A stretch of 64,000 nt of DNA from GCF_988242995.1 NZ_OZ547043.1; one strand, 5' to 3'; positions 3,580 through 54,260 are shown, counted from the stretch's first letter. A program made the numbers and translations. The notes: generated by a model from the letters alone, not told the origin.

Positions 3580-4068
3580 ATGAGTGAGATAGTGATACGC
3601 CATGCTGAAACGCGCGATTACGAGGCCATCAGGCAGATTCACGCCCAGCCGGAGGTGTATTGCAACACGCTACAGGTGCCTCATCCTTCCGATCATATGT
3701 GGCAGGAGCGACTCGCCGATCGTCCCGGCATCAAGCAACTCGTCGCCTGTATTGATGGAGACGTCGTGGGCCATCTCACCATTGACGTGCAACAGCGCCC
3801 ACGCCGCAGTCATGTTGCAGATTTTGGTATTTGTGTCGACTCCCGTTGGAAGAATCGCGGCGTCGCCAGCGCCCTGATGCGAGAGATGATTGAAATGTGC
3901 GACAACTGGTTGCGGGTAGATCGTATTGAGCTAACGGTGTTCATCGATAACGCGCCAGCAATTAAGGTCTATAAAAAATTTGGATTTGAGATTGAAGGGA
4001 CTGGCAAGAAGTACGCATTACGTAATGGTGAATATGTCGATGCGTATTATATGGCGCGGGTGAAGTAA
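3580..4068 (+). CDS. yhhY: GNAT-family N-acetyltransferase
   Basis: Internal ATG of ORF 3487-4068 gives 162 aa starting MSEIVIRHAETRDY; GNAT motifs (RWKNRGVASALM); matches remembered YhhY. Confidence 0.88.
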   Translation: MSEIVIRHAETRDYEAIRQIHAQPEVYCNTLQVPHPSDHMWQERLADRPGIKQLVACIDGDVVGHLTIDVQQRPRRSHVADFGICVDSRWKNRGVASALMREMIEMCDNWLRVDRIELTVFIDNAPAIKVYKKFGFEIEGTGKKYALRNGEYVDAYYMARVK

Positions 4069-8609: not shown

Positions 8610-9050
8610 ATGAAACGACTTCTGATTCTTACGGCACTCCTGCCGTTTGTCGGCTTTGCACAGCCCATTAATACTCTGAACAACCCCAACCAGCCGGGAT
8701 ATCAGATCCCCAGTCAGCAGCGGATGCAAACCCAAATGCAAACGCAGCAAATCCAGCAAAAAGGGATGCTGAATCAGCAACTGAAAACGCAAACTCAGTT
8801 GCAACAGCAGCATTTAGAAAACCAGATCAACAATAATTCTCAGCGGGTGTTGCAGTCACAGCCGGGGGAGCGAAATCCCGCCCGGCAGCAAATGCTGCCC
8901 AACACCAACGGCGGGATGTTAAACAGCAACCGTAATCCGGATAGTTCGTTGAATCAGCAGCATATGCTGCCGGAGAGGAGAAACGGCGACATGCTGAATC
9001 AGCCCAGCACGCCGCAGCCTGACATTCCGTTGAAAACTATTGGGCCGTAA
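8610..9050 (+). CDS. yhhA: secreted Gln-rich low-complexity protein
   Basis: 146 aa; N-terminal signal peptide ([17 protein letters not shown]) followed by Q-rich repeats ([12 protein letters not shown]); good SD (GGAGGA) upstream. Confidence 0.8.
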
Positions 9051-14250: not shown

Positions 14251-14304
14251 ATAAGCGGGAAAAATAGAAGGTCTGAATCAAACTCTACAGATTGCTCATC
14301 GTTT

Positions 14305-14410
<106 letters not shown>

Positions 14411-14467
14411 TTACATTTGTCACCTGTCTCAAAGGAGTCTTTTGACTCCTTATCAATCAACGTGTTA

Positions 14468-15181
14468 TTACCCGCCTAAATACGCACTTCTCACCGCTTC
14501 ATTCGCCAGCAGCGTATCGCCGGTATCGGAGAGCACAACATGGCCGTTTTCCAGCACGTAGCCGCGATCCGCCAGCTTTAGCGCCTGGTTGGCGTTCTGC
14601 TCGACGAGGAAGATGGTCATCCCCTGCTCGCGCAGCTGCTCGATGGTGTCGAAAATCTGCTGGATGATAATCGGCGCAAGACCGAGCGATGGCTCATCAA
14701 GCAACAATAAACGCGGGTTGCTCATCAGCGCGCGACCAATCGCCAGCATCTGCTGCTCACCGCCGGACATGGTGCCCGCCCGCTGAACACGGCGTTCATG
14801 GAGACGCGGAAACAGTTCATACACCCACTTTATGCGTTCCTGGAACTGGTCACGTTCAGCAAAAAAACCGCCCATCGCCAGGTTCTCTTCCACCGTCATC
14901 CGCGAGAAAACACGACGCCCTTCCGGGACAATCGCCACCGCTTCGCGCATGATTTTCGCCGTCTGCCAGTCGGTAATGTCTTTATCATCAAACACAATTC
15001 GCCCGCTGGTGGCGCGTGGGTCGCCGCATAACGTGCCGAGCAAGGTGGTTTTCCCCGCGCCGTTCGCGCCAATGAGGGTGACAATCTCGCCCTGATTGAT
15101 ATGCAGGCTCACCTCATGCAGCGCCTGGATTTTGCCGTAGTGGGCGCAGACTTTGTCAAAGGACAACATGACTTTTTCCAT
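14468..15181 (-). CDS. livF: branched-chain amino acid ABC transporter ATP-binding protein
   Basis: Start refined to MEKVMLSFDKV; Walker A GANGAGKTT; 237 aa. Confidence 0.95.
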   Translation of the reverse strand: MEKVMLSFDKVCAHYGKIQALHEVSLHINQGEIVTLIGANGAGKTTLLGTLCGDPRATSGRIVFDDKDITDWQTAKIMREAVAIVPEGRRVFSRMTVEENLAMGGFFAERDQFQERIKWVYELFPRLHERRVQRAGTMSGGEQQMLAIGRALMSNPRLLLLDEPSLGLAPIIIQQIFDTIEQLREQGMTIFLVEQNANQALKLADRGYVLENGHVVLSDTGDTLLANEAVRSAYLGG

Positions 15182-24506: not shown

Positions 24507-26003
24507 TTAATCCTCTCGGGCAAAAAGTGCCTCTATAAAGTCGTCCGCCTTAAACGGACGCAAATCCTCAATACGTTCGCCGACACCAATGTAGCGGATA
24601 GGGATACCAAACTGGTCAGCCACCGAGAAAATTACCCCGCCTTTCGCCGTGCCGTCCAGTTTCGTTAGCGTGATGCCGGTTAAGCCAACGGCTTCATGGA
24701 ACAGTTTGGCCTGGCTTACCGCGTTCTGCCCGGTGCTGGCATCGATAGTCAGCATAACTTCATGCGGCGCTTCAACGTCGAGTTTCTTCATCACGCGGAC
24801 GATTTTCTTCAACTCTTCCATCAGGTGCGATTTGTTCTGCAGGCGTCCGGCGGTATCGGCAATCAGGACGTCGATATTACGCGCTTTAGCGGCCTGAATG
24901 GCGTCGAAGATAACAGAGGCGGAATCCGCACCGGTATGCTGGGCAATCACCGGAATATTGTTGCGCTGACCCCAGACCTGAAGCTGTTCAACCGCTGCCG
25001 CACGGAAAGTATCGCCCGCCGCCAGCATCACCGATTTACCCTGCTGCTCAAACTGACGTGCCAGCTTACCAATCGTCGTGGTTTTACCCACACCGTTGAC
25101 GCCCACCATCAGGATCACGAACGGCGTTTTACCTTCAACATTCAGCGGCTCATCGACTTTCGCCAGAATCTCGCCCATCTCTTCTTTCAGCAGGCCATAG
25201 AGCGCTTCGGCATCACGAAGCTGCTTGCGGGATGCGCCTTCCGTCAGATTGGTGATAATTTTACGTGTGGTTTCCACGCCCACATCGGCGATCAACAGCT
25301 GTTCTTCCAGCTCTTCAAATAGATCATCGTCGATTTTTTTACCGCGGAACAGGCTGATAAATCCGGAACCGAGATTTTCTTTGGTTTTTAACAGGCTGCG
25401 TTTCAGGCGCGCGAAGAAACCTTCTTTGGTCGGTTTTTCCTGCTCCTGAGCGATTTCTTCCACCGGCTGCTCTTCTTCTGCCGGAGGAACCACCATCACC
25501 GCCTCTTCTGCCGCTTCGGCAGCCAGCGCCTGTGCTTCCAGCTCTTCGTCGGTGATTTCTTCTTTAGCCGCTTCTTCTTCCGCCGCTTCGACAATCTCTA
25601 CGGTTTCCGCTTCGGCCTGCCACTCTTCTGGCGAAACCTCTTCGGCGTTGACGTCCTCCGGCAACGGCAGCTCTTCACGCTCGATAGCCACTGGCTCCGG
25701 CGTTTCTTCTACGACCGGTTCCGGCTGTGCAACGACTTCCGCTTCAGGCTGCGCTTTTTCACTTTCAGCAACCTGTTCAGAGACTTCCACAACGTCGGCA
25801 GCAAAAGTTTCCGCTTCGGCCTCAGTATGCGCCTGCGGCTGCTCTTCAACGGCTTGTTCCGAAGCCTTCGCAGGCTCTTGCGCCTGAACGATTTCTTCTA
25901 CAACCGGTTGTTCATTCTGAACTTCTGTCTCTTTTTCCGGGGTCTGCTCTTTTTGACCAAAGCCCAGCCAGGAAAAAAAGCCACGTTTTTTTTCTTTCGC
26001 CAT
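24507..26003 (-). CDS. ftsY: signal recognition particle receptor
   Basis: 498 aa; acidic low-complexity N-terminal domain plus C-terminal SRP GTPase domain (GVNGVGKTTTIGKLA). Confidence 0.96.
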   Translation of the reverse strand: MAKEKKRGFFSWLGFGQKEQTPEKETEVQNEQPVVEEIVQAQEPAKASEQAVEEQPQAHTEAEAETFAADVVEVSEQVAESEKAQPEAEVVAQPEPVVEETPEPVAIEREELPLPEDVNAEEVSPEEWQAEAETVEIVEAAEEEAAKEEITDEELEAQALAAEAAEEAVMVVPPAEEEQPVEEIAQEQEKPTKEGFFARLKRSLLKTKENLGSGFISLFRGKKIDDDLFEELEEQLLIADVGVETTRKIITNLTEGASRKQLRDAEALYGLLKEEMGEILAKVDEPLNVEGKTPFVILMVGVNGVGKTTTIGKLARQFEQQGKSVMLAAGDTFRAAAVEQLQVWGQRNNIPVIAQHTGADSASVIFDAIQAAKARNIDVLIADTAGRLQNKSHLMEELKKIVRVMKKLDVEAPHEVMLTIDASTGQNAVSQAKLFHEAVGLTGITLTKLDGTAKGGVIFSVADQFGIPIRYIGVGERIEDLRPFKADDFIEALFARED

Positions 26004-26152
26004 TTGCGACTACACTCCTCGCTGTTGCTTCATGGCACAGCGTTAACGCTATGTACATAGCAGCTAAAAAAATGATGAAATAGTCTATCACTTAACTTAA
26101 TTCACATCACCGCCTGCAAGTATGTGTTATCTGGCGGATTGAGCAATTTATC

Positions 26153-26749
26153 ATGAAAAAACCGAATCATTCCGGCAGCGGCCAAATCCGCATTATTGGC
26201 GGGCAGTGGCGAGGCCGTAAACTCCCGGTTCCTGATAGCCCAGGTCTGCGCCCCACCACCGACCGCGTACGCGAAACGTTGTTTAACTGGCTGGCTCCGG
26301 TCATTGTTGACGCCCAATGTCTGGATTGCTTCGCCGGGAGCGGCGCGCTGGGGTTGGAAGCGTTATCGCGCTACGCTGCGGGGGCCACGTTGATTGAGAT
26401 GGATCGTGCAGTTTCTCAGCAGTTAATTAAGAATCTGGCGACACTAAAAGCAGGCAATGCACGCGTGGTGAACAGCAACGCGATGTCATTCCTGGCGCAA
26501 AAAGGCACACCGCATAATATCGTGTTTGTCGATCCACCGTTCCGCCGTGGCTTGTTAGAAGAGACGATAAATTTACTGGAAGATAACGGCTGGCTGGCTG
26601 ACGAAGCCCTGATTTATGTCGAAAGCGAAGTCGAAAACGGTCTGCCCACCGTTCCGGCGAACTGGTCATTACATCGGGAAAAAGTGGCGGGTCAGGTGGC
26701 TTATCGGCTGTATCAACGCGAAGCACAAGGAGAAAGTGATGCTGATTAA
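26153..26749 (+). CDS. rsmD: 16S rRNA m2G966 methyltransferase
   Basis: 198 aa; SAM-binding motif (LDCFAGSGALGLEA) and DPPF motif (VFVDPPF). Confidence 0.93.
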   Translation: MKKPNHSGSGQIRIIGGQWRGRKLPVPDSPGLRPTTDRVRETLFNWLAPVIVDAQCLDCFAGSGALGLEALSRYAAGATLIEMDRAVSQQLIKNLATLKAGNARVVNSNAMSFLAQKGTPHNIVFVDPPFRRGLLEETINLLEDNGWLADEALIYVESEVENGLPTVPANWSLHREKVAGQVAYRLYQREAQGESDAD

Positions 26750-27008
26750 TATTGGTCGTTTGTTAATGCTCTGTGTTTGGGGATTTTTAATCCTCAACCT
26801 GGTGCATCCCTTCCCGCGTCCGCTGAATATTTTCGTTAACGTGGCGCTGATTTTTACCGTGCTGATGCATGGTATGCAACTGGCGCTATTGAAATCCACT
26901 TTACCGAAAGATGGCCCGCAGATGACCACCGCCGAAAAGGTGCGGATTTTCCTTTTCGGCGTGTTTGAACTGCTGGTCTGGCAGAAGAAATTTAAAGTTA
27001 AAAAATAA
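26739..27008 (+). CDS. yhhL: small inner membrane protein (DUF1145)
   Basis: 89 aa from internal ATG (MLINIGRLLMLCVWGF) of ORF 26616-27008; overlaps rsmD 3' end by 11 nt. Confidence 0.8.
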   Translation: MLINIGRLLMLCVWGFLILNLVHPFPRPLNIFVNVALIFTVLMHGMQLALLKSTLPKDGPQMTTAEKVRIFLFGVFELLVWQKKFKVKK

Positions 27009-27010
27009 CC

Positions 27011-27370
27011 TTATTGTTCGCCAACAAAGCTAACAAAGCGCGTTCCTTTATAGCTCAGCGTACCTTTATCGCCCACTGTCAGGGCGTGGTACTGCTGGGC
27101 GTCGAGGCGAAACGTCTGCTCCATTCCTCCGCTTTGCGGTTTGAAGCTTGCCTCATAGCGCATACTGGTGCCTGCCGGAGTTACTTCCTGCTGGCGCGAA
27201 CGGCGATCGTTAATCGGTTTTTCCCGCTTGTTGCTCACCACCACCAGCTTTTGCTGGAGCGGTGCCATATCATTATCAGCTTTTTCCCGTCGTTGTTGCA
27301 TAAAACGAAACGATGCGGCGACGATGATTAAGCCAATGATAACAATAAAGAAAAGAGGTGGTTTGCTCAT
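27011..27370 (-). CDS. yhhM: uncharacterised membrane-anchored protein
   Basis: 119 aa with N-terminal TM helix (MSKPPLFFIVIIGLIIVAASF); K-12 synteny. Confidence 0.85.
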   Translation of the reverse strand: MSKPPLFFIVIIGLIIVAASFRFMQQRREKADNDMAPLQQKLVVVSNKREKPINDRRSRQQEVTPAGTSMRYEASFKPQSGGMEQTFRLDAQQYHALTVGDKGTLSYKGTRFVSFVGEQ

Positions 27371-37945: not shown

Positions 37946-40749
<2,804 letters not shown>

Positions 40750-40947
40750 CACCTACCAACGCGCCGTTATTTCCTGACGGCGCAGTAAATTCCTGCCAAA
40801 TATCGACTCACGTCACATTTTTTTGATCACGATTTGGTCCCTCAAAATGTGAGACGCTTCGATCCTCTTTTTCTCCCGTTCACCTACTATACGCTTGAAG
40901 TTGTCCATGATTGTCCATAGACAACTGTAAATGTTCAGGTGCGCGCC

Positions 40948-41694
40948 ATGAAATCATTAAGTAAGTCGTCACAAATACCGCTCTATCAACAAGTGGTGGA
41001 GTGGATAAGAGAAAGTATTTATACCGGGGATTTGGTGGAAGACGATCGCATTCCTTCGGAATACCAGATTATGGATATGCTGGAAGTGAGTCGGGGAACC
41101 GTTAAAAAAGCAGTCGCCCAACTGGTAAAAGAAGGCGTGTTGATTCAGGTCCAGGGGAAGGGAACATTTGTCAAAAAAGAGAACGTGGCATATCCGTTAG
41201 GTGAAGGATTATTGTCATTCGCGGAATCGCTGGAAAGCCAGAAAATACACTTTACCACTGAAGTTATTACGTCACGGATTGAACCGGCTAATCGTTATGT
41301 GGCAGAGAAATTAAGAATAACGCCCGGTCAGGATATTCTTTACCTTGAGCGTTTACGTTCAATTGGTGATGAAAAAGCGATGCTGATAGAGAACCGTATC
41401 AATATTGAGCTATGCCCCGGCATCGTGGAAATCGATTTTAATCAACACAATTTATTTCCAACAATAGAAAGTTTGTCGCAAAGAAAAATTCGTTACTCGG
41501 AAAGTCGCTATGCCGCGCGATTAATTGGTAATGAACGCGGTCATTTTTTAGATATCAGTGAAGATGCACCCGTTTTGCATCTGGAGCAGTTAGTCTTTTT
41601 CTCCCGAGAGTTACCCGTTGAGTTTGGCAACGTCTGGTTAAAAGGAAATAAATATTATCTGGGTACCGTGCTGCAACGGCGGGAATTGAGTTAA
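40948..41694 (+). CDS. GntR/HutC-family transcriptional regulator (HTH + UTRA effector domain)
   Basis: ATG at 40948 with upstream AGGTG (track start 40939 is GTG); N-terminal GntR HTH (IPSEYQIMDMLEVSRGTVKKAVAQLVKEGVL...GKGTFV); not part of K-12 at this position. Confidence 0.8.
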   Translation: MKSLSKSSQIPLYQQVVEWIRESIYTGDLVEDDRIPSEYQIMDMLEVSRGTVKKAVAQLVKEGVLIQVQGKGTFVKKENVAYPLGEGLLSFAESLESQKIHFTTEVITSRIEPANRYVAEKLRITPGQDILYLERLRSIGDEKAMLIENRINIELCPGIVEIDFNQHNLFPTIESLSQRKIRYSESRYAARLIGNERGHFLDISEDAPVLHLEQLVFFSRELPVEFGNVWLKGNKYYLGTVLQRRELS

Positions 41695-41718
41695 ATACAC
41701 TTTTTTATGAGGAATAAA

Positions 41719-42192
41719 ATGCAAGGCATACAGTTTCAGGAAAATTATATTCAACGACTTCCGGCAGGGTTAAGCGTTGAACAGATCATCCGTCAGTTAG
41801 CGCAACCGTTGGTTGCTGCTGAGCTGGTGGTCCCTGATTTTGCCGATCACGTACTGAAACGTGAGGCGACGTACCCAACAGGGCTGCCTACCGAACCGCC
41901 GTGCGTCGCTATTCCGCACACGGACCATAAACATGTCAGGCACAATGCAATTGCCGTCGGCATCCTGCCGGAACCGGTAGAGTTTGCCGATATGGGCGGC
42001 GATCCTGACCCCGTACCTGTCAGGGTGATTTTTTTGCTCGCCTTAAGCGAAAGTAATAAACAATTAAATGCCCTGGGCTGGATTATGGAGATGATTCAGG
42101 ATACGCCCTTTATGCGCGCCCTGCTTACGATGGAAACAACAGAAATACACACAGTAATCTTAAACAAAATGAAAGAACGAGGTGAAATATGA
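41719..42192 (+). CDS. PTS EIIA component, galactitol (GAT) family
   Basis: GatA-like motifs (YPTGLPTEP ... VAIPHTDH); start taken at ATG after GAGGA (track start 41707). Confidence 0.75.
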   Translation: MQGIQFQENYIQRLPAGLSVEQIIRQLAQPLVAAELVVPDFADHVLKREATYPTGLPTEPPCVAIPHTDHKHVRHNAIAVGILPEPVEFADMGGDPDPVPVRVIFLLALSESNKQLNALGWIMEMIQDTPFMRALLTMETTEIHTVILNKMKERGEI

Positions 42193-42470
42193 GTCAAACC
42201 ATTTTATTTGTCTGCGCCACGGGTATTGCCACATCCACGGCGGTAACAGAAAAAGTCATGGAATATTGTAAAGAGCACGGTCTTAACGTCAATTATTCCC
42301 AAACCAACGTTGCCTCTTTACCTGGAAATACTGACGGCGTAGCACTGGTAGTCTCAACGACTAAAGTGCCTTATGAACTCGACGTCCCGGTGGTTAACGG
42401 CTTGCCGATTATTACCGGTATTGGCGAAGAGAAAGTACTGGCGCAAATTGTTTCGATCCTTAAAAAGTAA
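42189..42470 (+). CDS. PTS EIIB component, galactitol (GAT) family
   Basis: 93 aa; phosphocysteine motif near the N-terminus (ILFVCATGIATST) like GatB; 4-bp overlap with EIIA. Confidence 0.78.
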   Translation: MSQTILFVCATGIATSTAVTEKVMEYCKEHGLNVNYSQTNVASLPGNTDGVALVVSTTKVPYELDVPVVNGLPIITGIGEEKVLAQIVSILKK

Positions 42471-42546
42471 TTAATAATAATTAATTTCAACCCACTCCAT
42501 CAGGCGCTAACGCGAGGTGCGCTCTCGCCTGAAAAAGAGGTTTATT

Positions 42547-43905
42547 ATGAACGATATCGCGCATACCCTCTATAATATTGTGCAATATATATTGGGATTT
42601 GGTCCCACGGTAATGTTGCCGTTGGTGTTATTTATTCTTGCTCTCTTTTTTAAAGTAAAACCCGCTAAAGCCTTACGTTCGTCATTAACGGTCGGTATTG
42701 GTTTTGTCGGTATTTATGCCATTTTCGATATTCTTACCAGCAATGTCGGGCCAGCGGCCCAGGCGATGGTTGAACGCACCGGAATTAATTTACCGGTGGT
42801 GGATTTAGGCTGGCCGCCGCTTTCCGCTATTACATGGGGTTCGCCAATTGCCCCGTTTGTTATTCCCCTGACTATTCTGATTAACGTGGCGATGCTGGCG
42901 TTAAATAAAACCCGCACCGTTGACGTAGATATGTGGAACTACTGGCATTTTGCCCTTGCCGGTACGCTGGTTTATTACAGCACCGGCAGCCTGTTCTTTG
43001 GTTTGCTGGCAGCGGCGATTGCTGCGGTGGTAGTACTTAAACTCGCCGACTGGTCTGCGCCACTGGTACAAAAATACTTTGGCCTGGAAGGGATCTCTTT
43101 GCCGACGCTCTCTTCGGTGGTGTTCTTTCCGGTCGGTCTGTTGGTCGACAAAATCATCGACCATATCCCCGGCCTCAATCGTATTCATATCGATCCGGAA
43201 ACCGTACAGAAAAAGTTTGGCATATTCGGCGAACCGATGATGGTTGGTACTATTCTGGGCATTCTGCTCGGCGTAATTGCCGGATACGATTTCAAAAAAG
43301 TCTTGCTGCTTGGCATCAGCATTGGCGGTGTGATGTTCATCCTGCCACGCATGGTTCGCATTCTGATGGAAGGTTTATTACCGCTGTCTGAAGCCATTAA
43401 AAAGTATCTCAATGCCAAATACCCTGACCGTGACGATCTCTATATCGGCCTGGATATCGCCGTTGCCGTAGGTAACCCAGCGATTATCTCCACCGCCCTG
43501 CTGCTGACGCCAATCTCGGTCTTTATCGCGTTTGTCCTTCCGGGTAATGAAGTCCTGCCGCTTGGCGACCTTGCCAACCTGGCGGTAATGGCGTCGATGA
43601 TTGCTTTAGCCAGCCGTGGCAACATTTTCCGCACCGTTCTGGCGGCGATTCCGGTGATTATTGCCGATCTGTGGATTGCGACTAAAATCGCGCCGTTTAT
43701 TACCGGAATGGCGAAAGACGTTAATTTCAAATTTGCCGAAGGCTCCAGCGGCCAGGTCTCCAGTTTCCTTGATGGCGGTAACCCGTTCCGCTTCTGGCTG
43801 CTGGAAATCTTCAACGGCAATCTCATCGCCATTGGTCTGGTGCCGGTTATTGCCCTGGTACTGTATGGTATTTTCCGAATGACGCGGAGCACGGTTTATG
43901 CCTGA
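42547..43905 (+). CDS. PTS EIIC permease, galactitol (GAT) family
   Basis: About 452 aa polytopic membrane protein; ATG at 42547 preceded by AAGAGG (track start 42517 is GTG). Confidence 0.75.
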   Translation: MNDIAHTLYNIVQYILGFGPTVMLPLVLFILALFFKVKPAKALRSSLTVGIGFVGIYAIFDILTSNVGPAAQAMVERTGINLPVVDLGWPPLSAITWGSPIAPFVIPLTILINVAMLALNKTRTVDVDMWNYWHFALAGTLVYYSTGSLFFGLLAAAIAAVVVLKLADWSAPLVQKYFGLEGISLPTLSSVVFFPVGLLVDKIIDHIPGLNRIHIDPETVQKKFGIFGEPMMVGTILGILLGVIAGYDFKKVLLLGISIGGVMFILPRMVRILMEGLLPLSEAIKKYLNAKYPDRDDLYIGLDIAVAVGNPAIISTALLLTPISVFIAFVLPGNEVLPLGDLANLAVMASMIALASRGNIFRTVLAAIPVIIADLWIATKIAPFITGMAKDVNFKFAEGSSGQVSSFLDGGNPFRFWLLEIFNGNLIAIGLVPVIALVLYGIFRMTRSTVYA

Positions 43906-45406
43906 TAACAGCGCAGCTATCGTTATCGATATTGGCACCACCAATTGCAAAGTCACCTGCTTTTCCTGCCTGGACGCAACGACGTTGGGCGCGCATAAAT
44001 TCGTGACGGCAAAACAGATCTCCCCACAGGGCAATGTCGATTTCGATATCGACGCCCTCTGGCAGGAGGTCCGCCAGGCGATAGCGCAACTGAACGCCGC
44101 TTCGCCGCTGCCAGTCAGGCGGATAAGCATTGCCAGTTTTGGCGAGTCAGGCGTGTTCCTTGACGAGCATGGCGAGATCCTGACGCCAATGCTGGCATGG
44201 TATGACCGTCGCGGTGAAGAGTATCTGGCTACACTTAGCGAGGCAGACAGTGCGGCACTTTATGACATTTGCGGGTTACCGCTGCACAGCAATTACTCTG
44301 CCTTCAAAATGCGTTGGTTGCTGGAACATTACCCACTGCGTAATCGCCGCGGCCTGCGTTGGCTACATGCGCCGGAAGTACTGCTCTGGCGGCTGACCGG
44401 CGAACAGCGCACGGATATCACCTTAGCCAGCCGCACGCTGTGTCTGGACGTGCGCAAAGGCGCATGGTCAGTGAAAGCGGCGGCGTTGTTACACGTTCCC
44501 TGTTCAGCATTTGCGCCATTGGTGCAGCCAGGCGAACACGCCGGATGGGTCAGCGAGTCGCTCTGCAAAACGCTTGGGTTCTCGCAACCGGTCAGCGTGA
44601 CGCTGGCCGGACATGACCATATGGTGGGTGCGCGAGCGTTGCAGATGATGCCGGGCGATATCCTTAACTCGACGGGGACCACAGAAGGTATTCTGCAACT
44701 GGATACACAACCGACGCTGGATGAACAGGCCAAACGTGACAAGCTGGCAAACGGCTGTTATTCGCTTGCAAACCAGTTCACCCTGTTTGCGTCGCTGCCC
44801 GTGGGCGGTTTCGCTCTGGAGTGGCTGCGTAACACGTTCCGGCTAACCGATGAGGAGATCGCCGCATCACTTACTCGCGGACATGCGGATTACCTGGCGG
44901 GGAACTGGTCGCTCGATGACATTCCCCTCTTTATTCCACATCTTCGCGGTTCGGGTTCGCCCTATAAAAATCGCCATACTCGTGGATTATTTTATGGGCT
45001 TGGCGATACGTTAAATATCGACATGTTAATTGCCAGCGTCTCACTGGGATTAACCATGGAATTTGCCAACTGCTTCGCCTGTTTTAATGTGCCTGGCACC
45101 AGCGCGTTAAAAGTGATAGGTCCGGCAACCCAAAATCCCCTTTGGCTGCAATTAAAAGCGGATATTTTACAGCGTCCGGTTGAAGCAATTGCATTTAACG
45201 AGGCGGTTTCTGTCGGAGCATTATTAACTGCCGCACCGGATATTCCACCGCCGCAAGTTACCATAGCCCAACGTTTGTTACCGAATCGGGCGAGATACCA
45301 TCAATTACAGCGTTATCAGCACAAATGGAAAAGCTGGTATCAGTTGAAATTACAGCAAGAAGGCGTGATGCCATTACACCATCGGGAGGAGCACTATGTT
45401 GAGTAA
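43898..45406 (+). CDS. FGGY-family carbohydrate kinase
   Basis: 502 aa; N-terminal actin-fold phosphate-1 motif (AIVIDIGTTNCKV) and FGGY-type glycine-rich segments; 8-bp overlap with EIIC gene. Confidence 0.7.
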   Translation: MPDNSAAIVIDIGTTNCKVTCFSCLDATTLGAHKFVTAKQISPQGNVDFDIDALWQEVRQAIAQLNAASPLPVRRISIASFGESGVFLDEHGEILTPMLAWYDRRGEEYLATLSEADSAALYDICGLPLHSNYSAFKMRWLLEHYPLRNRRGLRWLHAPEVLLWRLTGEQRTDITLASRTLCLDVRKGAWSVKAAALLHVPCSAFAPLVQPGEHAGWVSESLCKTLGFSQPVSVTLAGHDHMVGARALQMMPGDILNSTGTTEGILQLDTQPTLDEQAKRDKLANGCYSLANQFTLFASLPVGGFALEWLRNTFRLTDEEIAASLTRGHADYLAGNWSLDDIPLFIPHLRGSGSPYKNRHTRGLFYGLGDTLNIDMLIASVSLGLTMEFANCFACFNVPGTSALKVIGPATQNPLWLQLKADILQRPVEAIAFNEAVSVGALLTAAPDIPPPQVTIAQRLLPNRARYHQLQRYQHKWKSWYQLKLQQEGVMPLHHREEHYVE

Positions 45407-45665
45407 AACCGTGGAGGTCAGAAACAGTACTGGCCTGCATGCACGTCCGGCGGCGTGTCTGGTGAAAGCCGCCAAAAAGTTTAGCTGTAAAGTGACGCTG
45501 CATTATGAGGGTAATGATATTAATGCCACCAGCATGATGAATATTATGCGCGCCGGAATAAAAGGCGGCAAAACGGTGGAAATACGCTGCGAAGGCGATG
45601 ATGAAAATGAGGCAATACAAACTCTCACTGCCTTATTTCGTGACCGCTTCGGTGAAGCTGAATAA
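45396..45665 (+). CDS. HPr-family phosphocarrier protein (operon-specific paralog)
   Basis: 89 aa; active-site His context GLHARPAA identical in pattern to HPr His15; strong SD GGGAGGAG. Confidence 0.8.
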   Translation: MLSKTVEVRNSTGLHARPAACLVKAAKKFSCKVTLHYEGNDINATSMMNIMRAGIKGGKTVEIRCEGDDENEAIQTLTALFRDRFGEAE

Positions 45666-45695
45666 TTAACTGATATTAAAAGATGAGGTTTTCAA

Positions 45696-46547
45696 ATGCC
45701 ATTAGTTAATGGACGGATACTGCTCGACCGCATTCAGGAAAAACGGGTATTAGCGGGCGCGTTTAATACCACCAATCTGGAGACGACGATTTCAATTTTA
45801 AACGCCATTGAGCGTTCAGGATTACCCAACTTCATTCAGATTGCGCCCACCAATGCACAACTCTCGGGATACGATTACATTTATGAAATCGTGAAACGTC
45901 ACGCCGATAAAATGGATGTTCCGGTCAGTCTTCATCTGGATCACGGGAAAACTCAGGAGGATGTTAAACAGGCGGTGCGCGCGGGCTTTACCTCGGTCAT
46001 GATTGACGGTGCCGCATTATCTTTTGAAGAGAATATCGCTTTCACCCAGGAAGCTGTCGATTTCTGTAAATCCTATGGCGTACCGGTTGAAGCGGAGCTG
46101 GGGGCGATTCTCGGCAAAGAAGATGATCACGTCAGCGAAGCCGATTGCAAAACGGAACCGGAAAAGGTGAAGACCTTTGTCGAGCGCACCGGTTGCGACA
46201 TGCTGGCAGTTTCTATTGGCAACGTTCATGGCCTGGACGATATACCGCGTATCGATATCCCCCTGCTGAAGCGCATTGCCGAAGTCTGCCCGGTGCCGCT
46301 GGTTATTCACGGCGGCTCCGGTATCGCCCCGGAAATATTACGCAGCTTTGTTAATTATCGCGTCGCTAAAGTAAATATCGCCAGCGATCTGCGCAAAGCG
46401 TTTATCACCGCCGTCGGCAAAGCGTATGTGAATAATCACAACGAGGCGAATCTGGCACGAGTGATGGCATCAGCAAAAAACGCCGTCGAGGAAGATGTGT
46501 ATAGCAAAATCCTGATGATGAATGAGGGGCATCGGTTGGTTAAGTAA
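45696..46547 (+). CDS. class II ketose-bisphosphate aldolase (GatY/KbaY/FbaA family)
   Basis: 283 aa; metal-binding His motifs (HLDHG, VIHGGSG) typical of class II tagatose/fructose-bisphosphate aldolases. Confidence 0.8.
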   Translation: MPLVNGRILLDRIQEKRVLAGAFNTTNLETTISILNAIERSGLPNFIQIAPTNAQLSGYDYIYEIVKRHADKMDVPVSLHLDHGKTQEDVKQAVRAGFTSVMIDGAALSFEENIAFTQEAVDFCKSYGVPVEAELGAILGKEDDHVSEADCKTEPEKVKTFVERTGCDMLAVSIGNVHGLDDIPRIDIPLLKRIAEVCPVPLVIHGGSGIAPEILRSFVNYRVAKVNIASDLRKAFITAVGKAYVNNHNEANLARVMASAKNAVEEDVYSKILMMNEGHRLVK

Positions 46548-46640
46548 ATCTTCGCCGGATGCGGCGTAAAACAACTACAATTCAATAAATTGTACCGATG
46601 CGTAGACCCTATAAGCTTACGCATCGGGCAACTGTATTTA
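46548..46640. repeat. REP-like palindromic elements at island/core junction
   Basis: gccggatgcggcgtaaa and cgatgcgtagaccctataagcttacgcatcgg palindromes between the aldolase gene and yhhJ. Confidence 0.7.
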
Positions 46641-47765
46641 CGCCATTGTCCCAATCGTCTTCCTGAATCGCAGCAGTGCGATGGTGAAAAACGCGCCGCC
46701 AATTGCCATCAGCGTCAGGAACTGCGGCCAGACGATTTCGAATCCGGCACCACGGTAGAGAATGGCTTGCGCGAGGCTGACAAAGTGTGTCGTCGGCATG
46801 GTCAGCATAATGTCCTGCACCGTCTGCGGCATACTTTCGCGCGGCGTGGATCCACCGGAAAGCATTTGCAGCGGCAGCAGCACCAGAATCACCAGCAGCC
46901 CCAGTTGCGGCATTGAACGCGCTATCGTCCCCATAAAAATGCCAATTGACGTGGTGGCAAACAGACTGAGCGCCACGCCCAGCATAAATAGCGGGATCGA
47001 GCCTTCAATCGGTACGCCCAGCACGCCTTTCACCATCAGTACCAGCGATAATCCCGACACCACCAGCACCACCAACCCCATCGACCAGACCTTCGCCATC
47101 ATGATCTCAAACGGCGTTATCGGCATCACCAGTAAGTGTTCCACCGTGCCGTGTTCGCGCTCGCGGATCAGCGCCGATCCGGTCAGCACAATCGCCAGCA
47201 TGGTAATGTTGTTGATGATCGCCATCACCCCGCCAAACCACGCGGGATCGAGGTTCGGGTTAAAGCGCATCCGGGTTTCCAGCGATACCAACGGTTCGCT
47301 ATTATCACGGTAGCGCGCGACAAAGCTGTTCACTTCACCGTTGATAATATTCTGGATATAACCGTTGCCAGTGAATGCCTGGCTCATGCGCGTGGCATCG
47401 ACGTTCACCTGAATATCCGGCTGGCGTCCGGCGAGGACATCACGCTGAAAATTAGGCGGAATATTTATCGCGAAGGTATAGCGTCCGGCGTCCAGTCCGG
47501 CATCCATCTCATCGGCGGTGATCATCTCCGGTGGCAAAAACCACGGGCGATAGAAGCTGTTAACGATCCGGTTCGACAACTGCGATTGATCCATATCGGC
47601 TATGGCGATCGGCGCGAGGTTCAACGATCCTGGCGTGACGGTCGCTGACGAATACACCGATACCGTAAACGAGAAAACAATCAACGTCAGCATCGCTTTA
47701 TCACCGAGCAGACTGCGCAACTCTTTGATACCCAGATTAAAAATATTGCGTAAATGGCGCATCAT
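46638..47765 (-). CDS. yhhJ: ABC-2 type transporter permease
   Basis: Start refined to [12 protein letters not shown] (4-bp overlap with rbbA); about 375 aa membrane protein. Confidence 0.9.
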
Positions 47766-50497
47766 CCCTCCTGTTTTTTCAGCAGCAGGATGCTTAAGCC
47801 CATCACCAGCGGGATGGCTATCAGCAGCGGGATAAAAAGTTGCCACAAATCAGTCAGATCCAGCGCTTTCGAGAACGTCCCGCGGGCGATAGTCAGAAAA
47901 TGACTGGTCGGGTAAACCTCGCCGATCCAGCGTCCTGGACCTTCCAGCGAAGCTACCGGATCGATCATCCCGGAAAACTGTGTCGCCGGGATCAACGTGA
48001 TAATCGCCGTACCGAAAATGGCGGCAATCTGGCTTTTCATAAAGGTGGAGATCAGCAGCCCCATTCCGGTGGCAATGATGATATACAGCAGCGCCGCCAG
48101 GGTGAGCGTCAGGAAACTACCTTTATGCGGTACGCCAAACACAAACACCGACAGGCCGCAGAGCAGGAAAAAGTTCAGCATCCCCAGCGCGATGTACGGC
48201 AGCTGTTTGCCAAGCAAAAATTCGCTACGGGTGGTGGGTGTCACGTAAAGGTTGATAATCGACCCTAGCTCTTTTTCCCGCACCACGCTAAGAGCGCTTA
48301 GCATTGACGGGATCATCATCAGCAGAAGCGGGATCACCGCCGGAACAATCGCTGGCAGGCTTTTTACATCCGGGTTATAGCGATAGCGCGTCTCAATATT
48401 CATCAGCCCGTTTTGGCTGGCGGGCGTGGATTGTCGGCTCGCTACATCCTGTAACCAGCTCTGGTGCATAGCCTGCACGTAGCCTTTTACCGTTTCGGCG
48501 CGGCTCGGCATCGCACCATCGATCCAGACACCGAGTTCCACGGGTGTACCACGCGCGATATCGCGCCCGAAATTGGGAGGGATCTCAATCGCCACCGTGA
48601 TATCGCCCGCACGCATTCGACGATCAAGCTCGTCATAACTGGTGAGCGGCGGCTGTTCGATAAAGTAACGGGAACCGGAGAGATTGAGCGTCCACGCCTG
48701 GCTACTGACGGTCTGGTCGCGGTCAAGCACCGCAAAGCGCAGGTTTTCCACATCCATATTGATGCCGTAACCCATTATCAGCATCAGGATCACCGTTCCC
48801 ATCAGCGCCAGCGTCGAACGTACCGGATCGCGTCGCAGTTCCAGCGCTTCGCGGCGGCTGTAGCTAAACAGACGGCGCAGGCTAAATCCCTGACGCGGCG
48901 CGTGGGTGGTGTCGTGTATCACGGGCGGCGCTTCGGCTTCGTTGCTCTGCCCTGCCGCTTCCTGCAAATAGGCGATAAATGCCTCTTCCAGACTTGCGGC
49001 TCCGCGTTTCTCAACCAGTTCCTGCGGTGTACCGCTGGCAAGCACTTTTCCGGCGTGCATCAGGGAGATGCGGTCGCAACGTTCCGCTTCGTTCATAAAG
49101 TGGGTGGAGATGAAGATAGTCACTTTGTCCTGACGCGAGAGATCGACCATCAACTGCCAGAACATATCCCTCGCCACCGGATCGACACCAGAAGTAGGCT
49201 CATCGAGGATTAACATCTCCGGGCGATGAATCACCGCCACCGCCAGCGAAAGCCGCTGGCGAATGCCGAGCGGTAATGACTCAGGCAATACATCTTCAAC
49301 GTCGTTGAGCTTAAAACGCTCGCTCATTTCAGCCACTCGCGCGGGAATTTCCGCTTCCGGGATATGAAACAAACGGGCATGTAACTCCAGGTTTTGCCGC
49401 ACGGTGAGTTCGTTATAGAGCGAAAACGCCTGCGACATATAGCCCACCCGACGGCGGGTATCGATATCTTTTGGATCAACCGGTTGCCCGAACAGCCACG
49501 CCTCACCTTCGCTGGCAGGCAGCAGTCCGGTAAGCATTTTCATGGTGGTGGATTTACCGCAGCCGTTCGAACCGAGGAATCCAAAAATCTCCCCGCGTGG
49601 AATGCGGAAATTGACGTGATCAACGGCAATGAAGGAACCAAAACGCATGGTCAGATCGCGCGCTTCGATGGCAATCTCTGCGTTTTCCGGTTGATATGGT
49701 GGGATCACTACCGCCTGATGCGCCTGGCGTTGCGCTTGCGGTAACAGATTTATAAACGCCTCTTCCAGCGTCGCACTTTGCGTTTGCTGCCGCAGCTCTT
49801 CGGCGCTGCCGGTTGCCAGCACTTCTCCGGCATTCATCGCTACCAGCCAGTCGAAGCGTTCGGCCTCTTCCATATAGGCGGTGGCGACCAGCACGCTCAT
49901 ATTGCTCTGCCGCTGGCGAATACTGTCGATCAGATCCCAGAACTGGGCACGGGAGAGCGGGTCAACCCCCGTTGTTGGCTCATCAAGAATCAACAGTTCC
50001 GGGTCGTGGATTAACGCACAGCACAGCCCAAGTTTTTGCTTCATCCCGCCGGAGAGTTTACCTGCCGGACGATCGCGAAACGGTGCTAACCCGGTGCTGG
50101 TCAGCAGCTCATTAATTCGCACTTCCCGCTCCGCTTTGTCGTGACCGAACAGGCGGGCGAAAAAATCGACGTTTTCATACACCGACAAGGTGTGGTAGAG
50201 GTTTTTGCCCAGCCCTTGCGGCATCCAGGCGATGCGCGGGCAAACGTCACGGCGATGCTTCGGGTCGCGCATATCGCCGCCCAGCACGATCACATTGCCC
50301 TGCTCAATGACACGAGCACCGGAAATCAATGACAATAAACTCGACTTCCCGACGCCATCCGGACCAATCAGCCCAACCATGCAGCGGGCCGGAATATCGA
50401 GAGTGATATTGTTCAGCGCAACGGTTTTTCCATAATGCTGGCTCACGCCCGCCAGTTGCGCGACAGGCGGGACGGGAACCAGTTCCAGATGCGTCAT
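47762..50497 (-). CDS. rbbA: ribosome-associated ATPase, fused tandem ABC ATPase plus permease domain
   Basis: 911 aa; two Walker A motifs ([18 protein letters not shown]), two LSGG signatures, C-terminal ABC-2 membrane domain. Confidence 0.95.
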
Positions 50498-51561
50498 TGC
50501 GGCAACCTCACCACCAGGTCGTCAGGCCACGGAAGTTCTTCATTCACCCGCACCCACGCTACGCCCGGCAAACCGGTTTTGACATATTCCAGATGCTGCT
50601 GGAGTAATTCCGGTGGGATACGCGCTTTGACGCGGAACATCAGTTTCAGCCGCTCATCGCTGGTTTCGACGGTTTTTGGCGTGAACTGGGCGACGCTGGC
50701 GACAAAACTGATGGTTGCAGGAATACGCAGATCTGGCGCGGCATCGAGGATCAGCCGGGCTTCACCGCCCAGTTTCAGCGTGCCCGCCTGTTCGGTTGGC
50801 AGGAAGAAGGTCATATAGACGTCGCTCAGATCGACCATATTCAGCACCCGACCGCCTGCCGCCAGCACTTCCCCTGGCTCGGCAACCCGATACTGCACGC
50901 GTCCGTCACGCGGGGCTTTCAGTTCGCTGTCATCGATATCTGCGGCAATGCGCCGTTCAGTGGCTTGTGCGGCTTCGACGCGTGTTTGCGCCTGAATGAT
51001 ATTGGTGCGTGCCGCTTCTATAGCGGCTTTAGAAGCCGAAACCTGGGCTTTTGCTGATTCCAGCGCAGCTCGGGCGCTCTCAGCGGCGGCGCGATCGTCA
51101 TCCAGCTGTTGCGCAGAAATAGCCCCTCGTTGGGCGAGCGAGCGGGAACGCGTATGACGTTTGGCAACGGAGTCCAGTTCGGCCTGGCGTTGATTGACCA
51201 GCGACTGTGCGGCACGAGTTTCGCTTTGGCGTTGCTCCAGCAAAGCCTGCGCGGCGGCAACGGCGCTTTGTGCTTCTTTGATTTGCGCGATGGCTTCCAG
51301 TCGCTGTTCCTGCAACACGCGAGTATCCATCTTCGCCAGCACTTCACCTTCGCGAACAAACTGGCCTTCTTTCACCAGAATGGTGTCGATACGCCCGGCA
51401 ATTTTGCTGGCGATATCCACTTCCGTCGCTTCAATGCGCCCATTGCTGACGGCAAAGCCTTCCGGCACACCCGCTGGGCGCAACAGCCACCACGCCACGA
51501 TAGCGGCCACCGCCAGTAACCCGACAACCCACCACGCCAGATGGCGCTTACTCTTATCCAT
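50494..51561 (-). CDS. yhiI: HlyD-family membrane fusion protein
   Basis: 355 aa; N-terminal TM anchor then long coiled-coil; 4-bp overlap with rbbA. Confidence 0.92.
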
Positions 51562-52029
51562 AATCGACCCGCCATAATCCCTGTAAGCAAACGACGCGTG
51601 TTACAACTGCCGCCGAACGACGTTCAGCGGATTCTTCCATCCGGGATAAGAAGGAAACGGCAAATACGACCAGCGCGCAGAGCATTGAGCGCCAACGTGG
51701 AAGGCTTAGTGAAAACGGGTAGTAATGTTGTCATCATCAGCATTCCTGGCCGTAAATGAAACACGCATACTCATAAGTGTGATCTATAAAACTGGCTGAC
51801 AAAACGGTATCCATCCTGTTGGATAGCGTTTCACGCCTGTTCAGTTGCAGGAACAGAGCATTCCTTATTACGTTTTATCAACAGTCTCAACCAGATAGTA
51901 ACATTAATATTCATGTTGTCTATGGTTCAGAGCTGTAACATTGTGCGCCTTCTAATCAAAGGCATAAGTCCATTTTTGTTTTTTTCATGCTGGTAAGACT
52001 TCCAGGGAGTGGTTATCTCAGGCCCTGCA

Positions 52030-52745
52030 CCAGGGTTAATTTGGCAATAAATATCCTCCGGCATAGCCGGAGGTTTTTCAAATGCGCCTATAAGGCTCTC
52101 TTACCAGCCGCGCCCTAACAGGCGCACACGATCTGACATTTGCATCCAACTTCGTTACTTACGGCCCGTAAACGGGCTGCCCGGATAGGGAATCGATAAC
52201 TGCTCTCCCATTTTATCCTCTTCAAGCTGGTGCTTTATGTAATCCTGTATCTTCGCCGTGTTCTTACCCACTGTATCGACGTAGTACCCTCTGCACCAGA
52301 ACTCCCTGTTCCTGTATTTGAATTTCAAATCACCAAACTGCTCGTAAAGCATCAGACTGCTTTTCCCTTTCAGATATCCCATAAAGCCGGATACGCTCAT
52401 TTTGGGCGGGATCTCCACAAGCATATGGATATAATCTGCACAGCATTCAGCTTCCAGAATCCGTACGCTTTTCCACTCACACAGCTTTCTCAAAATACTG
52501 CCTATTGCTCTACGCTTCTCTCTGTAGAACACCTGTCTTCGGTATTTTGGCGCAAAAACTATGTGATATTTACAGTTCCATCGGGTGTGCGCTAAGCTCT
52601 TTTCGTTCCCCATTGGGACCCCCTTTTGATTTCTTGTTTGACACTTGCAGTTGCCAGACCGCAAAGTGTTTTAACAAATCAAAAGGGGTTTTAATAACTG
52701 GCTCAAAGCTGAAAGCTTTCCGGAACCCCCAGCCTAGCTGGGGGT
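52030..52745 (-). mobile_element. IS200-like insertion sequence (IS200/IS605 family, tnpA only); boundaries approximate
   Basis: About 0.7 kb element containing a Y1/HUH transposase gene, with a perfect GC-rich hairpin (aacccccagc cta gctgggggtt) at the tnpA-upstream end as in IS200 left ends; absent from the K-12 arrangement. Confidence 0.7.
52155..52613 (-). CDS. tnpA: IS200/IS605-family Y1 (HUH) transposase TnpA
   Basis: 152 aa from MGNEKSLAHTRWNCKYHIVFAPKYRR; HUH-type motif (YIHMLV) and catalytic Tyr region; start refined from ORF 52155-52664. Confidence 0.85.
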   Translation of the reverse strand: MGNEKSLAHTRWNCKYHIVFAPKYRRQVFYREKRRAIGSILRKLCEWKSVRILEAECCADYIHMLVEIPPKMSVSGFMGYLKGKSSLMLYEQFGDLKFKYRNREFWCRGYYVDTVGKNTAKIQDYIKHQLEEDKMGEQLSIPYPGSPFTGRK

Positions 52746-54260
52746 TTTCTGTGCACAATTATGCATGCTGAACATTCTTCCAGCATGTTTACTGTCACGG
52801 GCGTTAAGACCTAAAACTGTCCCCGTTTCACCTATGCGTTCTCTTCCACCATTACCGTTATGTGCAACAACTTGATTTATACCTAACATTTGTGAGCATG
52901 CTAATAGTTCTTCAAGTTTCGGTCTGTAATCTGTCGAAACAGAAAAATAACGATTAAAGGATCGACAAGAGATAGCCCGGCTAGTTTTAAACTTTTTACC
53001 ATTAATGATGGCATGATGCTTCTTATTAATAATTGCCGCTAATTCGACCGGATCGAGAGCATTGGTCATTTCATCAATAGAGACTGTTATCGGTCCTATA
53101 ATGTAACGTTTTCGCTGATCATCAAAAGTTATCCCATGATGATTTGCCATTATTTTGTATTTGGGGTCATAGAAACATACAGGATAATCTTTTATCCCAG
53201 CGTAGGTATCCTCATCAAGTGGTTTCATACGCGTGAAGTTCTGCATATAGTTACCATTGCAATTCGTTTCATGATTACCAGCTAATACATGAACATTTTT
53301 ATTAATACTCATTATGCGTTTTAACAAATCGATGATAAATTGATCGCCACAGATATTACTAAATCGATCGCCGGTTTGGTCACCCAGAAACGTACATGGC
53401 GTCACTGCGCCCTGATTAATAACTAAATATGGCTGAAGACTTTCTAAAACCACATCTCTTCTGTTCAGAATACTGATTATTGTATTAACATTAATGTCTA
53501 GTTCCTCATTAATTTTTTCCCTTAATAAAACGTTGAGAACTTCATCTTCTATATTAAGCAACTGGCTAAGAAAATTTACTTCTTCAGCCATAATTCCCAA
53601 ATGTCCCGTTGCGAAAAGCGCGTACAAAACTGCACCGACTGAGCCATCGGTATCACCAAAATAGGTTGGTCTGGTACTTGTGGGATCAACGGGTGAACAA
53701 TTGGAGAAATAGATTCTGTCAGCGAACTGGGGTTTTATAATTGTTTCGAATTTAATATCAGATACATTGTATTGCGATATTTTCCAGTTCCAGATGGGTT
53801 TGTACGACTCAGTAACTGCAACATCATTAGCATTATCATTTACTGTCATATTATTAAGTAAATAAACAATGCTGCACCAATTAATATCGGTATCATCAAG
53901 AGGGCAACCGTAATTTTTACTATTAATTGTCACAATAAACTGATAACTATTATTCCTACGTAGAATATGGGCACGCATGCCCGATAGCATACTATATTTT
54001 TCTGAATGATTCGTTTCTATGGTAAATGAAATTTTGTCATCTTGAAAAGATTGTTGGAAACGTTCTATTTGCCAATCATCAATTTTTTCCACAACTTCAC
54101 CGAGCATTGTCCTGGCAATACTTGATATATCATCACCTATACCATTTGCAATATACCCAAACAGTTCTTTAGTGAAGTTAGTAACATGCTCTTGCACCAT
54201 ATCATTTGTTGCGATAGTCGTTATACTGTCGTTAGTACCTGCCACAGTTCCAATTTTCAT
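52734..54260 (-). CDS. yhiJ: DUF4049-type protein with C-terminal PPP-like metallophosphoesterase motifs; 3' end abuts or is altered by the IS200 end
   Basis: 508 aa; motifs GDTDG, GDQTGDRF, LAGNHE in PPP order; SD GAGGT upstream; paralog of the next gene; AT-rich. Confidence 0.8.
   Translation of the reverse strand: MKIGTVAGTNDSITTIATNDMVQEHVTNFTKELFGYIANGIGDDISSIARTMLGEVVEKIDDWQIERFQQSFQDDKISFTIETNHSEKYSMLSGMRAHILRRNNSYQFIVTINSKNYGCPLDDTDINWCSIVYLLNNMTVNDNANDVAVTESYKPIWNWKISQYNVSDIKFETIIKPQFADRIYFSNCSPVDPTSTRPTYFGDTDGSVGAVLYALFATGHLGIMAEEVNFLSQLLNIEDEVLNVLLREKINEELDINVNTIISILNRRDVVLESLQPYLVINQGAVTPCTFLGDQTGDRFSNICGDQFIIDLLKRIMSINKNVHVLAGNHETNCNGNYMQNFTRMKPLDEDTYAGIKDYPVCFYDPKYKIMANHHGITFDDQRKRYIIGPITVSIDEMTNALDPVELAAIINKKHHAIINGKKFKTSRAISCRSFNRYFSVSTDYRPKLEELLACSQMLGINQVVAHNGNGGRERIGETGTVLGLNARDSKHAGRMFSMHNCAQKTPS

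Follow-up and report, generated by a model that had tools for sequence, protein, structure and literature searches.

The 11-nucleotide overlap of rsmD and yhhL in Escherichia coli: an operon junction whose length is probably a by-product of the first codons of yhhL

Genes and features at the rsmD-yhhL junction

The window described here is a segment of an E. coli chromosome, 64,000 nucleotides long (GCF_988242995.1, NZ_OZ547043.1; one strand, 5' to 3'), in which the rRNA methyltransferase gene rsmD is followed on the + strand by yhhL, which encodes a small protein of the DUF1145 family. An earlier note on the same DNA had reported that the two genes overlap by 11 nt and had read translational coupling into that overlap. 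The features on which the present analysis draws are the following.

26101..26130, +: sigma-70 promoter of rsmD-yhhL (TTCACA at 26101-26106, 18-nt spacer, TGTTAT at 26125-26130), the published hexamers as located here
26153..26749, +: rsmD CDS, 16S rRNA m2G966 methyltransferase, 198 aa (ORF, PF03602, PDB 2FPO identity, PGAP)
26717..26746, +: RsmD C-terminal tail REAQGESDAD, outside the conserved fold and host to the yhhL Shine-Dalgarno (SD) sequence and start
26727..26732, +: yhhL SD AAGGAG, within rsmD codons CAA-GGA-GAA and 6 nt 5' of the ATG
26739..26741, +: yhhL start codon ATG (SD spacing, protein conservation, family N-termini, PF06611 match from residue 1)
26739..27008, +: yhhL CDS, DUF1145, 89 aa, predicted three-helix small membrane protein (PF06611, AlphaFold2, hydropathy)
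26743..26745, +: off-frame TGA in yhhL codons 2-3, the rsmD stop (7-nt overlap) in species with rsmD in the other frame
26747..26749, +: rsmD stop TAA, composed of the third base of the yhhL Ile3 codon (wobble T) and the AA of Asn4
27011..27370, -: yhhM (DUF2500), the convergent neighbour, with its stop 2 nt from the yhhL stop

The genes rsmD (26153-26749, +) and yhhL (26739-27008, +) have 11 nt in common, bases 26739-26749 (ATGCTGATTAA), and the sequence read at the junction is ...CAAGGAGAAAGTG ATG CTG ATT AAT.... In the rsmD frame (ATG 26153 + 3n) the tail is GAA AGT GAT GCT GAT TAA, with the stop at 26747-26749, and the frame opened by ATG 26739, which is +1 relative to rsmD, is an 89-codon ORF ending with TAA at 27006-27008. 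The coordinates of the overlap, and the observation that yhhL begins inside the 3' end of rsmD in a different frame, are borne out by the sequence, the ORF list and the RefSeq annotation, with RefSeq/PGAP giving the same two CDS ends on a 100%-identical stretch. Both ORFs are intact, matched by Pfam families and conserved as proteins, which places the pair among the short co-directional overlaps within operons. The 1.4 kb around the junction is 100% identical to E. coli strain NRZ14408 and is found in 5,425 of 5,426 complete E. coli genomes; the central 50 nt are identical in 4,491 of the 5,426, K-12 and O157:H7 among them.

The overlap itself is already known: it is annotated in RefSeq, was remarked on in 2012 and was tabulated as -11 in 2023. 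Sergiev et al. (2012) noted the partial overlap of yhhL with rsmD and proposed a test of the rsmD-yhhL association, and the entry in Table S2 of Huber et al. (2023; PMC10666635) gives the pair as -11 and 'CMPLX not' (no known complex). What is new here is the point that the length of the overlap is probably incidental.

The product of rsmD is identified as the 16S rRNA m2G966 methyltransferase by its match to PF03602 (Cons_hypoth95; E=8.9e-64, 214.9 bits, domain end at residue 188) and by the identity of residues 1-198 to the solved E. coli enzyme, PDB 2FPO ('methylase yhhF'). YhhL matches PF06611 (DUF1145) with E=1.6e-26 and 92.4 bits (gathering cut-off 21), its residues 1-58 covering profile positions 1-58 of 58, that is, the full model; the AlphaFold2 model (pLDDT 93.9) has helices at residues 2-22, 29-54 and 64-88, and a hydropathy profile was also run. 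The earlier naming of the two genes as an rRNA methyltransferase and a small membrane protein was accordingly right. The alignment of RsmD to the Pfam domain and to the homologous structures 2IFT and 3P9N ends at about residue 189. Beyond the motif YRLY the tail comprises 11 residues in E. coli (Gln188 counted), but only 3-5 residues in the majority of distant relatives and in the enterobacterial species whose rsmD ends within TAAGGAG. Among database proteins outside the window, P0146 (3,349 aa) contains eight weak DUF1145-like stretches together with partial DUF7738 and MerB matches.

Transcription of the pair has been described as a single rsmD-yhhL unit with the promoter hexamers TTCACA and TGTTAT (Shimada et al., 2014; PMC3946193), which lie at 26101-26130 in the window. 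It is quite improbable that yhhL is driven instead by a promoter of its own inside rsmD, which would make the overlap irrelevant to expression. A sigma-70 consensus scan detected no promoter-like + strand site within rsmD, the literature gives one unit, and the pair is strictly co-directional and tight in all 88 loci compared below; in favour of a separate promoter it can be said that this negative comes from the consensus scan only, and that the same scan missed the published promoter at 26101-26130. No terminator was predicted for the rsmD-yhhL unit, and none between yhhL and yhhM. A distance of 2 nt separates the convergent stops of the latter two (window 27006-27013), and no terminator-like hairpin lies in between, from which it follows that the two transcripts overlap; yhhL-yhhM is listed as a candidate excludon in the ExcludonFinder paper (PMC12288877). 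The same list holds the pair yhhA (+) and ugpQ (-), which is also convergent, with a 14-nt overlap of 3' ends at window 9037-9050.

The start codon and the junction among relatives

A check for another yhhL start codon leaves ATG 26739 standing on the grounds of its SD, codon conservation and family N-termini. Among the in-frame candidates an SD precedes only this ATG and the adjacent GTG 26736, with good spacing for the ATG alone, and none was found for ATG 26616 (-1.5 kcal/mol), TTG 26760 or ATG 26766. With -8.5 kcal/mol for its duplex with the 16S 3' end, the yhhL SD takes rank 12 among the 58 gene starts of the window, and 81 of 88 rsmD-DUF1145 loci have an SD that reaches -6 kcal/mol or better. 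Across 81 aligned loci from many genera, codons 2-9 are kept as protein despite synonymous changes: Leu2, Asn4, Gly6 and Arg7 are invariant and are encoded by four Leu, two Asn, four Gly and five Arg codons, and the codon aligned with residue 1 is ATG in 74. Codons -1 to -8 of the yhhL frame display no protein-level conservation in the same 81 loci, and an in-frame stop lies 0-6 codons upstream of the ATG in eight loci. The N-termini of 32 DUF1145 family members (down to 24% identity) agree within about 3 residues, and the first helix of the YhhL model begins at residue 2. In Kosakonia the start lies two codons earlier (MPLLIN), giving a 17-nt overlap.

A start at GTG 26736, ATG 26766 (Met10) or ATG 26616 would turn the overlap into one of 14 nt, none or one of 134 nt, respectively, and is very unlikely. 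The GTG is in frame and adjoins the ATG, and Salmonella has ATGATG at this place, for which reason its protein is annotated at 90 aa; the GTG, however, is spaced only 3 nt from the SD, and the -1 codon varies among genera (ACG, AAC, GTG, AGG, CCG and others). Met10 is invariant, but residues 2-9 are under protein-level selection, so that Met10 cannot be the sole start. Some database gene calls run to 124-153 aa, which also speaks for a different start, whereas ATG 26616 lacks an SD (as given above), and in other genera the frame upstream is interrupted by stops or shows no conservation. Judged from SD spacing and protein-level conservation, the start at ATG 26739 is well supported.

The state of the junction was determined in 88 loci from the first in-frame stop after the RsmD motif YRL[YF], which served as the anchor. 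Eighty of these loci come from an 11-sequence alignment and are all Enterobacteriaceae-like, and more distant taxa were reached through seven single-protein look-ups; because the 80 close loci belong to related species, the following counts do not represent independent events.

11-nt overlap: 58 of 88 loci, the majority state
17-nt overlap: 6 of 88 (Kosakonia)
7-nt overlap: 5 of 88 (rsmD stop is TGA)
4-nt overlap: 1 of 88 (Cedecea, ATGA)
1-nt overlap: 2 of 88
Abutting (0): 1 of 88
Gap of +1: 1 of 88
Gap of +3: 2 of 88
Gap of +9: 1 of 88
Gap of +10: 3 of 88 (Citrobacter spp., CAA to TAA giving TAAGGAG)
Gap of +11: 6 of 88 (Buttiauxella, Providencia)
Gap of +17: 1 of 88
Gap of +75: 1 of 88

Conservation of the overlap in relatives had been proposed as a check in the earlier note: the 11-nt form is found in the majority, and elsewhere there are other overlaps or gaps, with a TAAGGAG stop abolishing the overlap in species of Citrobacter and Buttiauxella. 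The pair is kept throughout. A DUF1145 gene lies directly 3' of an rsmD-family gene on the same strand in all 80 genome loci and in all seven distant look-ups, and the 88 loci span Enterobacterales, Vibrionales and Alteromonadales, the distant taxa identified being Providencia, Vibrio, Shewanella and Celerinatantimonas. The spacing is at most 17 nt on either side in 87 of 88 loci, with a 75-nt gap in the 88th. The gene downstream of DUF1145 varies (DUF2500, MarC or cytochrome), and the upstream neighbour differs in one locus (L086), where a penicillin-binding-protein gene replaces ftsY before rsmD. The divergent arrangement of ftsY and rsmD (window 24507-26749) is retained in the Vibrio, Shewanella and Celerinatantimonas loci (L087, L090, L091) as a trio of ftsY and rsmD-DUF1145, and ftsY, the gene of the SRP receptor, is often the third conserved neighbour of the pair. 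The comparison of these sequences shows that the conserved feature is the adjacency of rsmD and DUF1145, not the overlap. Since the RsmD tail lies outside the conserved domain and measures only 3-5 residues in the majority of distant relatives, the most natural reading of the overlap is a 3' extension of rsmD; it looks like a lineage-specific extension across the yhhL ribosome-binding site (RBS) in Enterobacteriaceae, reversed several times.

The length of 11 nt can be traced to the first codons of yhhL. ATG CTG ATT AAT, which encodes the conserved N-terminus Met-Leu-Ile-Asn and is thus required by the YhhL protein, holds an off-frame stop in each alternative frame (TGA, +5 to +7; TAA, +9 to +11), and rsmD must therefore end no more than 11 nt into yhhL, whichever of these frames it enters in. 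The equivalent of the TGA at 26743-26745 ends rsmD in five loci (Pseudescherichia, Buttiauxella). Ile3 of YhhL (26745-26747) is encoded by ATT in 75 of the 76 loci that bear Ile, and Ile at position 5 by ATT in 11, ATA in 10 and ATC in 2; without the TAA at 26747-26749, RsmD would grow by 30 codons, to TAA 26837-26839. This codon usage does show a one-nucleotide dual-coding constraint on the wobble T of Ile3. The 11-nt length is in all likelihood a by-product of the first four codons of YhhL, with only that wobble T additionally held. Where overlap length is fixed by downstream N-terminal codons in this way, a conserved length should not be read as selection for length or for coupling.

Translation of yhhL and its dependence on rsmD

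The overlap is, with a probability of about 0.8, an ordinary internal junction of a two-gene rsmD-yhhL operon. One promoter in the ftsY-rsmD spacer would give one rsmD-yhhL mRNA, on which yhhL would be translated from AUG 26739 by means of the strong AAGGAG within the last, apparently dispensable codons of rsmD. The rsmD frame would cross the SD and start of yhhL and end at the first stop it meets. Most YhhL synthesis probably begins de novo on its own accessible SD, and ribosomes finishing rsmD, which would terminate 8 nt downstream of the AUG, may add to it by short-range backward reinitiation. The spacing of -11 falls within the working range of reinitiation, on the unfavourable side of more overlap. 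The energy needed to open the yhhL RBS is ordinary (10.7 against a window median of 9.45 kcal/mol). The SD of rsmD (start region 26138-26155) is weak and badly spaced (-4.8 kcal/mol, rank 39 of the 58 starts in the window). Because the RBS of rsmD is weak and -11 is a sub-optimal distance for reinitiation, the contribution of reinitiation is probably minor; we infer that de novo initiation is the main source of YhhL and that ribosomes terminating on rsmD add little to it. As an observation apart, with a weak SD for rsmD and a strong one for yhhL, translation rates may differ considerably within the operon. One point against the proposal of mainly de novo initiation is that SD strength predicts the translation efficiency of E. 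coli genes poorly (PMC7043885).

The claim that the overlap implies coupling is upheld only as far as geometry goes: the arrangement allows termination-reinitiation, but the implication is not established, given the strong SD of yhhL itself, the absence of a masking structure and the gaps in relatives. Under tight coupling, the main source of YhhL would be ribosomes that terminate on the rsmD TAA and at once move back 8 nt to reinitiate, and YhhL output would be tied to that of RsmD. This is possible, if rather doubtful. The short stop-start distance in 87 of 88 loci from three orders, maintained while flanking genes change, speaks for it, as do the SD kept in 81 of 88 loci (an SD helps to hold the post-termination ribosome), the lack of a predicted internal promoter and the reinitiation demonstrated for short-overlap pairs of E. 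coli. Conserved spacing and a kept SD are also what selection for coupling is expected to produce, and reinitiation could for this reason matter more than proposed above. On the other side, the strong and accessible SD of yhhL permits de novo initiation, the weak SD makes rsmD a poor supplier of ribosomes, and the pair persists in species with gaps of +10/+11 and +75 nt. Published work points the same way: reinitiation is reported to have its optimum at -4 to +3 nt and to drop with longer overlap, Tian and Salis are reported to have found coupling to fall progressively as overlap grows from -4 towards -25 nt, and the Table S2 entry of Huber et al. (2023) carries the 'CMPLX not' mark.

Direct literature data on coupling of the rsmD-yhhL pair were not found. 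There was no mention of yhhL in the TRAINSPOTTER supplements, Burkhardt 2017 or TetRP 2016, INRI-seq offered nothing usable on yhhL beyond a PNA off-target table, and the deep proteome of Zhao 2019 contained one peptide of RsmD and no YhhL.

Two further mechanisms were weighed against mainly independent initiation. A hairpin might hide the yhhL SD and AUG until the ribosomes that translate the last part of rsmD unfold it, and the minimum-free-energy fold of 26680-26800 does pair part of the AAGGAG region; that fold, however, is no stabler than those of shuffled sequences (z = -0.22; 77 of 200 shuffles fold as well), the consensus of 20 genera reaches only -1.39 kcal/mol with essentially no covariation and nothing over the SD or AUG, and the opening energy of the RBS is ordinary for the window. 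By these three measures no stable, conserved structure sequestering the yhhL SD or start was found, and unfolding of this kind is highly improbable. A programmed +1 frameshift in the overlap, yielding an RsmD-YhhL fusion protein, deserves next to no credence. It would fit the +1 frame of yhhL and the database protein P0140 (254 aa), which has both domains, but there is no slippery or hungry-codon context, the shift would have to occur before the ATG region, the conserved SD-ATG spacing marks an initiation site, and the frame of the junction differs among genera (overlaps of 7, 11 and 17 nt, and gaps). In P0140 the match to the RsmD profile (182 positions) is limited to positions 16-139, as is typical of an assembly frameshift, which is the most likely origin of this predicted RsmD-DUF1145 fusion. 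A frameshift site was accordingly rejected as a candidate, in view of the changing frame relation and of the yhhL-frame stops just upstream of the ATG in eight loci.

Comparable overlaps and significance

To place the junction among its neighbours, the CDSs of E. coli strains NRZ14408 and GN06156 were mapped onto the window by blastn; neither strain alone is collinear with it, NRZ14408 being so only over 14468-40749. Every mapped CDS is intact in the window except yhiJ, on the yhhJ side, which is truncated by an IS200-type element. Sixteen co-directional overlaps were obtained.

-4 (nine): ugpC/Q, ugpA/E, livM/G, livH/M, nikB/C, nikD/E, PTS-IIA/IIB, yhiI/rbbA, tssD/yrhA
-1 (three): nikA/B, nikC/D, rbbA/yhhJ
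-8 (two): ftsE/X, PTS-IIC/FGGY
-11 (two): rsmD/yhhL; FGGY kinase/HPr-like at 45396-45406

The mapping confirms the earlier remark that short overlaps recur in the ugp, liv, nik and yhiI-rbbA-yhhJ operons, and extends it to ftsE/X (-8), PTS-IIA/IIB (-4), PTS-IIC/FGGY (-8), FGGY/HPr (-11) and tssD/yrhA (-4). In E. coli operons -4 is more frequent than -1 and -1 more than -8, longer overlaps are rarer, and short co-directional overlaps are the norm; the recurrence is a fact of annotation geometry and not a statistical anomaly.

Like the -4 (ATGA) and -1 (TAATG/TGATG) overlaps of nikA/B/C/D/E, livH/M/G, ugpA/E and yhiI/rbbA/yhhJ, rsmD/yhhL is co-directional within one operon, has the downstream SD inside the upstream CDS and has its stop and start no farther apart than a ribosome footprint. 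It differs in that the codons for start and stop share bases in those pairs, whereas the rsmD stop is found 8 nt beyond the A of the yhhL ATG. The junction is in the +1 phase of the -8 overlaps, a class less common than -4 and -1, for which weaker reinitiation is expected from published work. ftsE/ftsX (-8) and PTS-IIC/FGGY kinase (-8) resemble it in their +1 frame and in a stop made by the early codons of the downstream gene, but their overlaps are one codon shorter. The second 11-nt overlap of the window, at 45396-45406 between an FGGY kinase (43898-45406, +) and an HPr-like protein (45396-45665, +), has the same geometry as rsmD/yhhL, with the SD GGAGGAG followed by ATG TTG AGT AAA, in which codons 3-4 make the upstream TAA. 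Its genes, which have clear Pfam matches (FGGY_N/FGGY_C; PTS-HPr), are unrelated to rsmD and yhhL and lie in a strain-variable sugar-utilisation island.

Huber et al. (2023; PMC10666635) showed coupling for hyfH-hyfI, ydbH-ynbE and menD-menH and a decay of termination-reinitiation with distance in E. coli. rsmD-yhhL is likewise a native overlapping pair with the SD inside the upstream gene; those three are -1 overlaps coupled by experiment, whereas rsmD-yhhL is -11 and figures as a Table S2 entry only. The same authors counted 203 E. coli pairs in the junction class of +9 to +12 nt, and in their view the +10 class is probably initiated independently. rsmD-DUF1145 in Citrobacter spp., Buttiauxella and Providencia (TAAGGAG stop, gap +10/+11) has precisely the form of this class, from which E. 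coli differs in that the rsmD stop has moved downstream of the yhhL start.

The window also contains strain-variable features unconnected with the junction. About 700 nt at ~52048-52756 are absent from the two reference strains and include an ORF at 52155-52664 (-) for an IS200-type transposase (PF01797 Y1_Tnp, E=7e-37); this element sits at the 3' end of yhiJ, the ORF of which is cut to 508 aa (52734-54260). The island at 40948-46547, between nikR and yhhJ, carries genes for a GntR-family regulator, PTS IIA/IIB/IIC, the FGGY kinase, the HPr-like protein and a class II aldolase, and the corresponding site of NRZ14408 is occupied by an Rhs element with immunity genes; at least 80% of the query 39500-53500 (island included) is covered in 1,635 of 5,426 E. 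coli genomes. Between ugpB and livF (window 14253-14468) a tetratricopeptide-repeat gene of ~750 nt present in NRZ14408 is lacking, and yhhY (3580-4068) has only 83.6% identity to the NRZ14408 allele, with neighbours at 97-99%.

The rsmD/yhhL junction offers a worked example of a gene overlap the length of which would be set wholly by the N-terminal codons of the downstream protein. DUF1145 follows rsmD tightly in 87 of 88 loci while flanking genes change, and on this account RsmD and the DUF1145 membrane protein might be functional partners, an idea that the gene order makes conceivable but that we consider unlikely. The gene order could in that case reflect a physical or stoichiometric link between a methyltransferase acting late on the 30S subunit and an inner-membrane protein of three helices, which might, for instance, tether RsmD to the membrane or regulate it. 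The invariant adjacency of rsmD and DUF1145 across three gammaproteobacterial orders may serve as a testable lead to the function of DUF1145.
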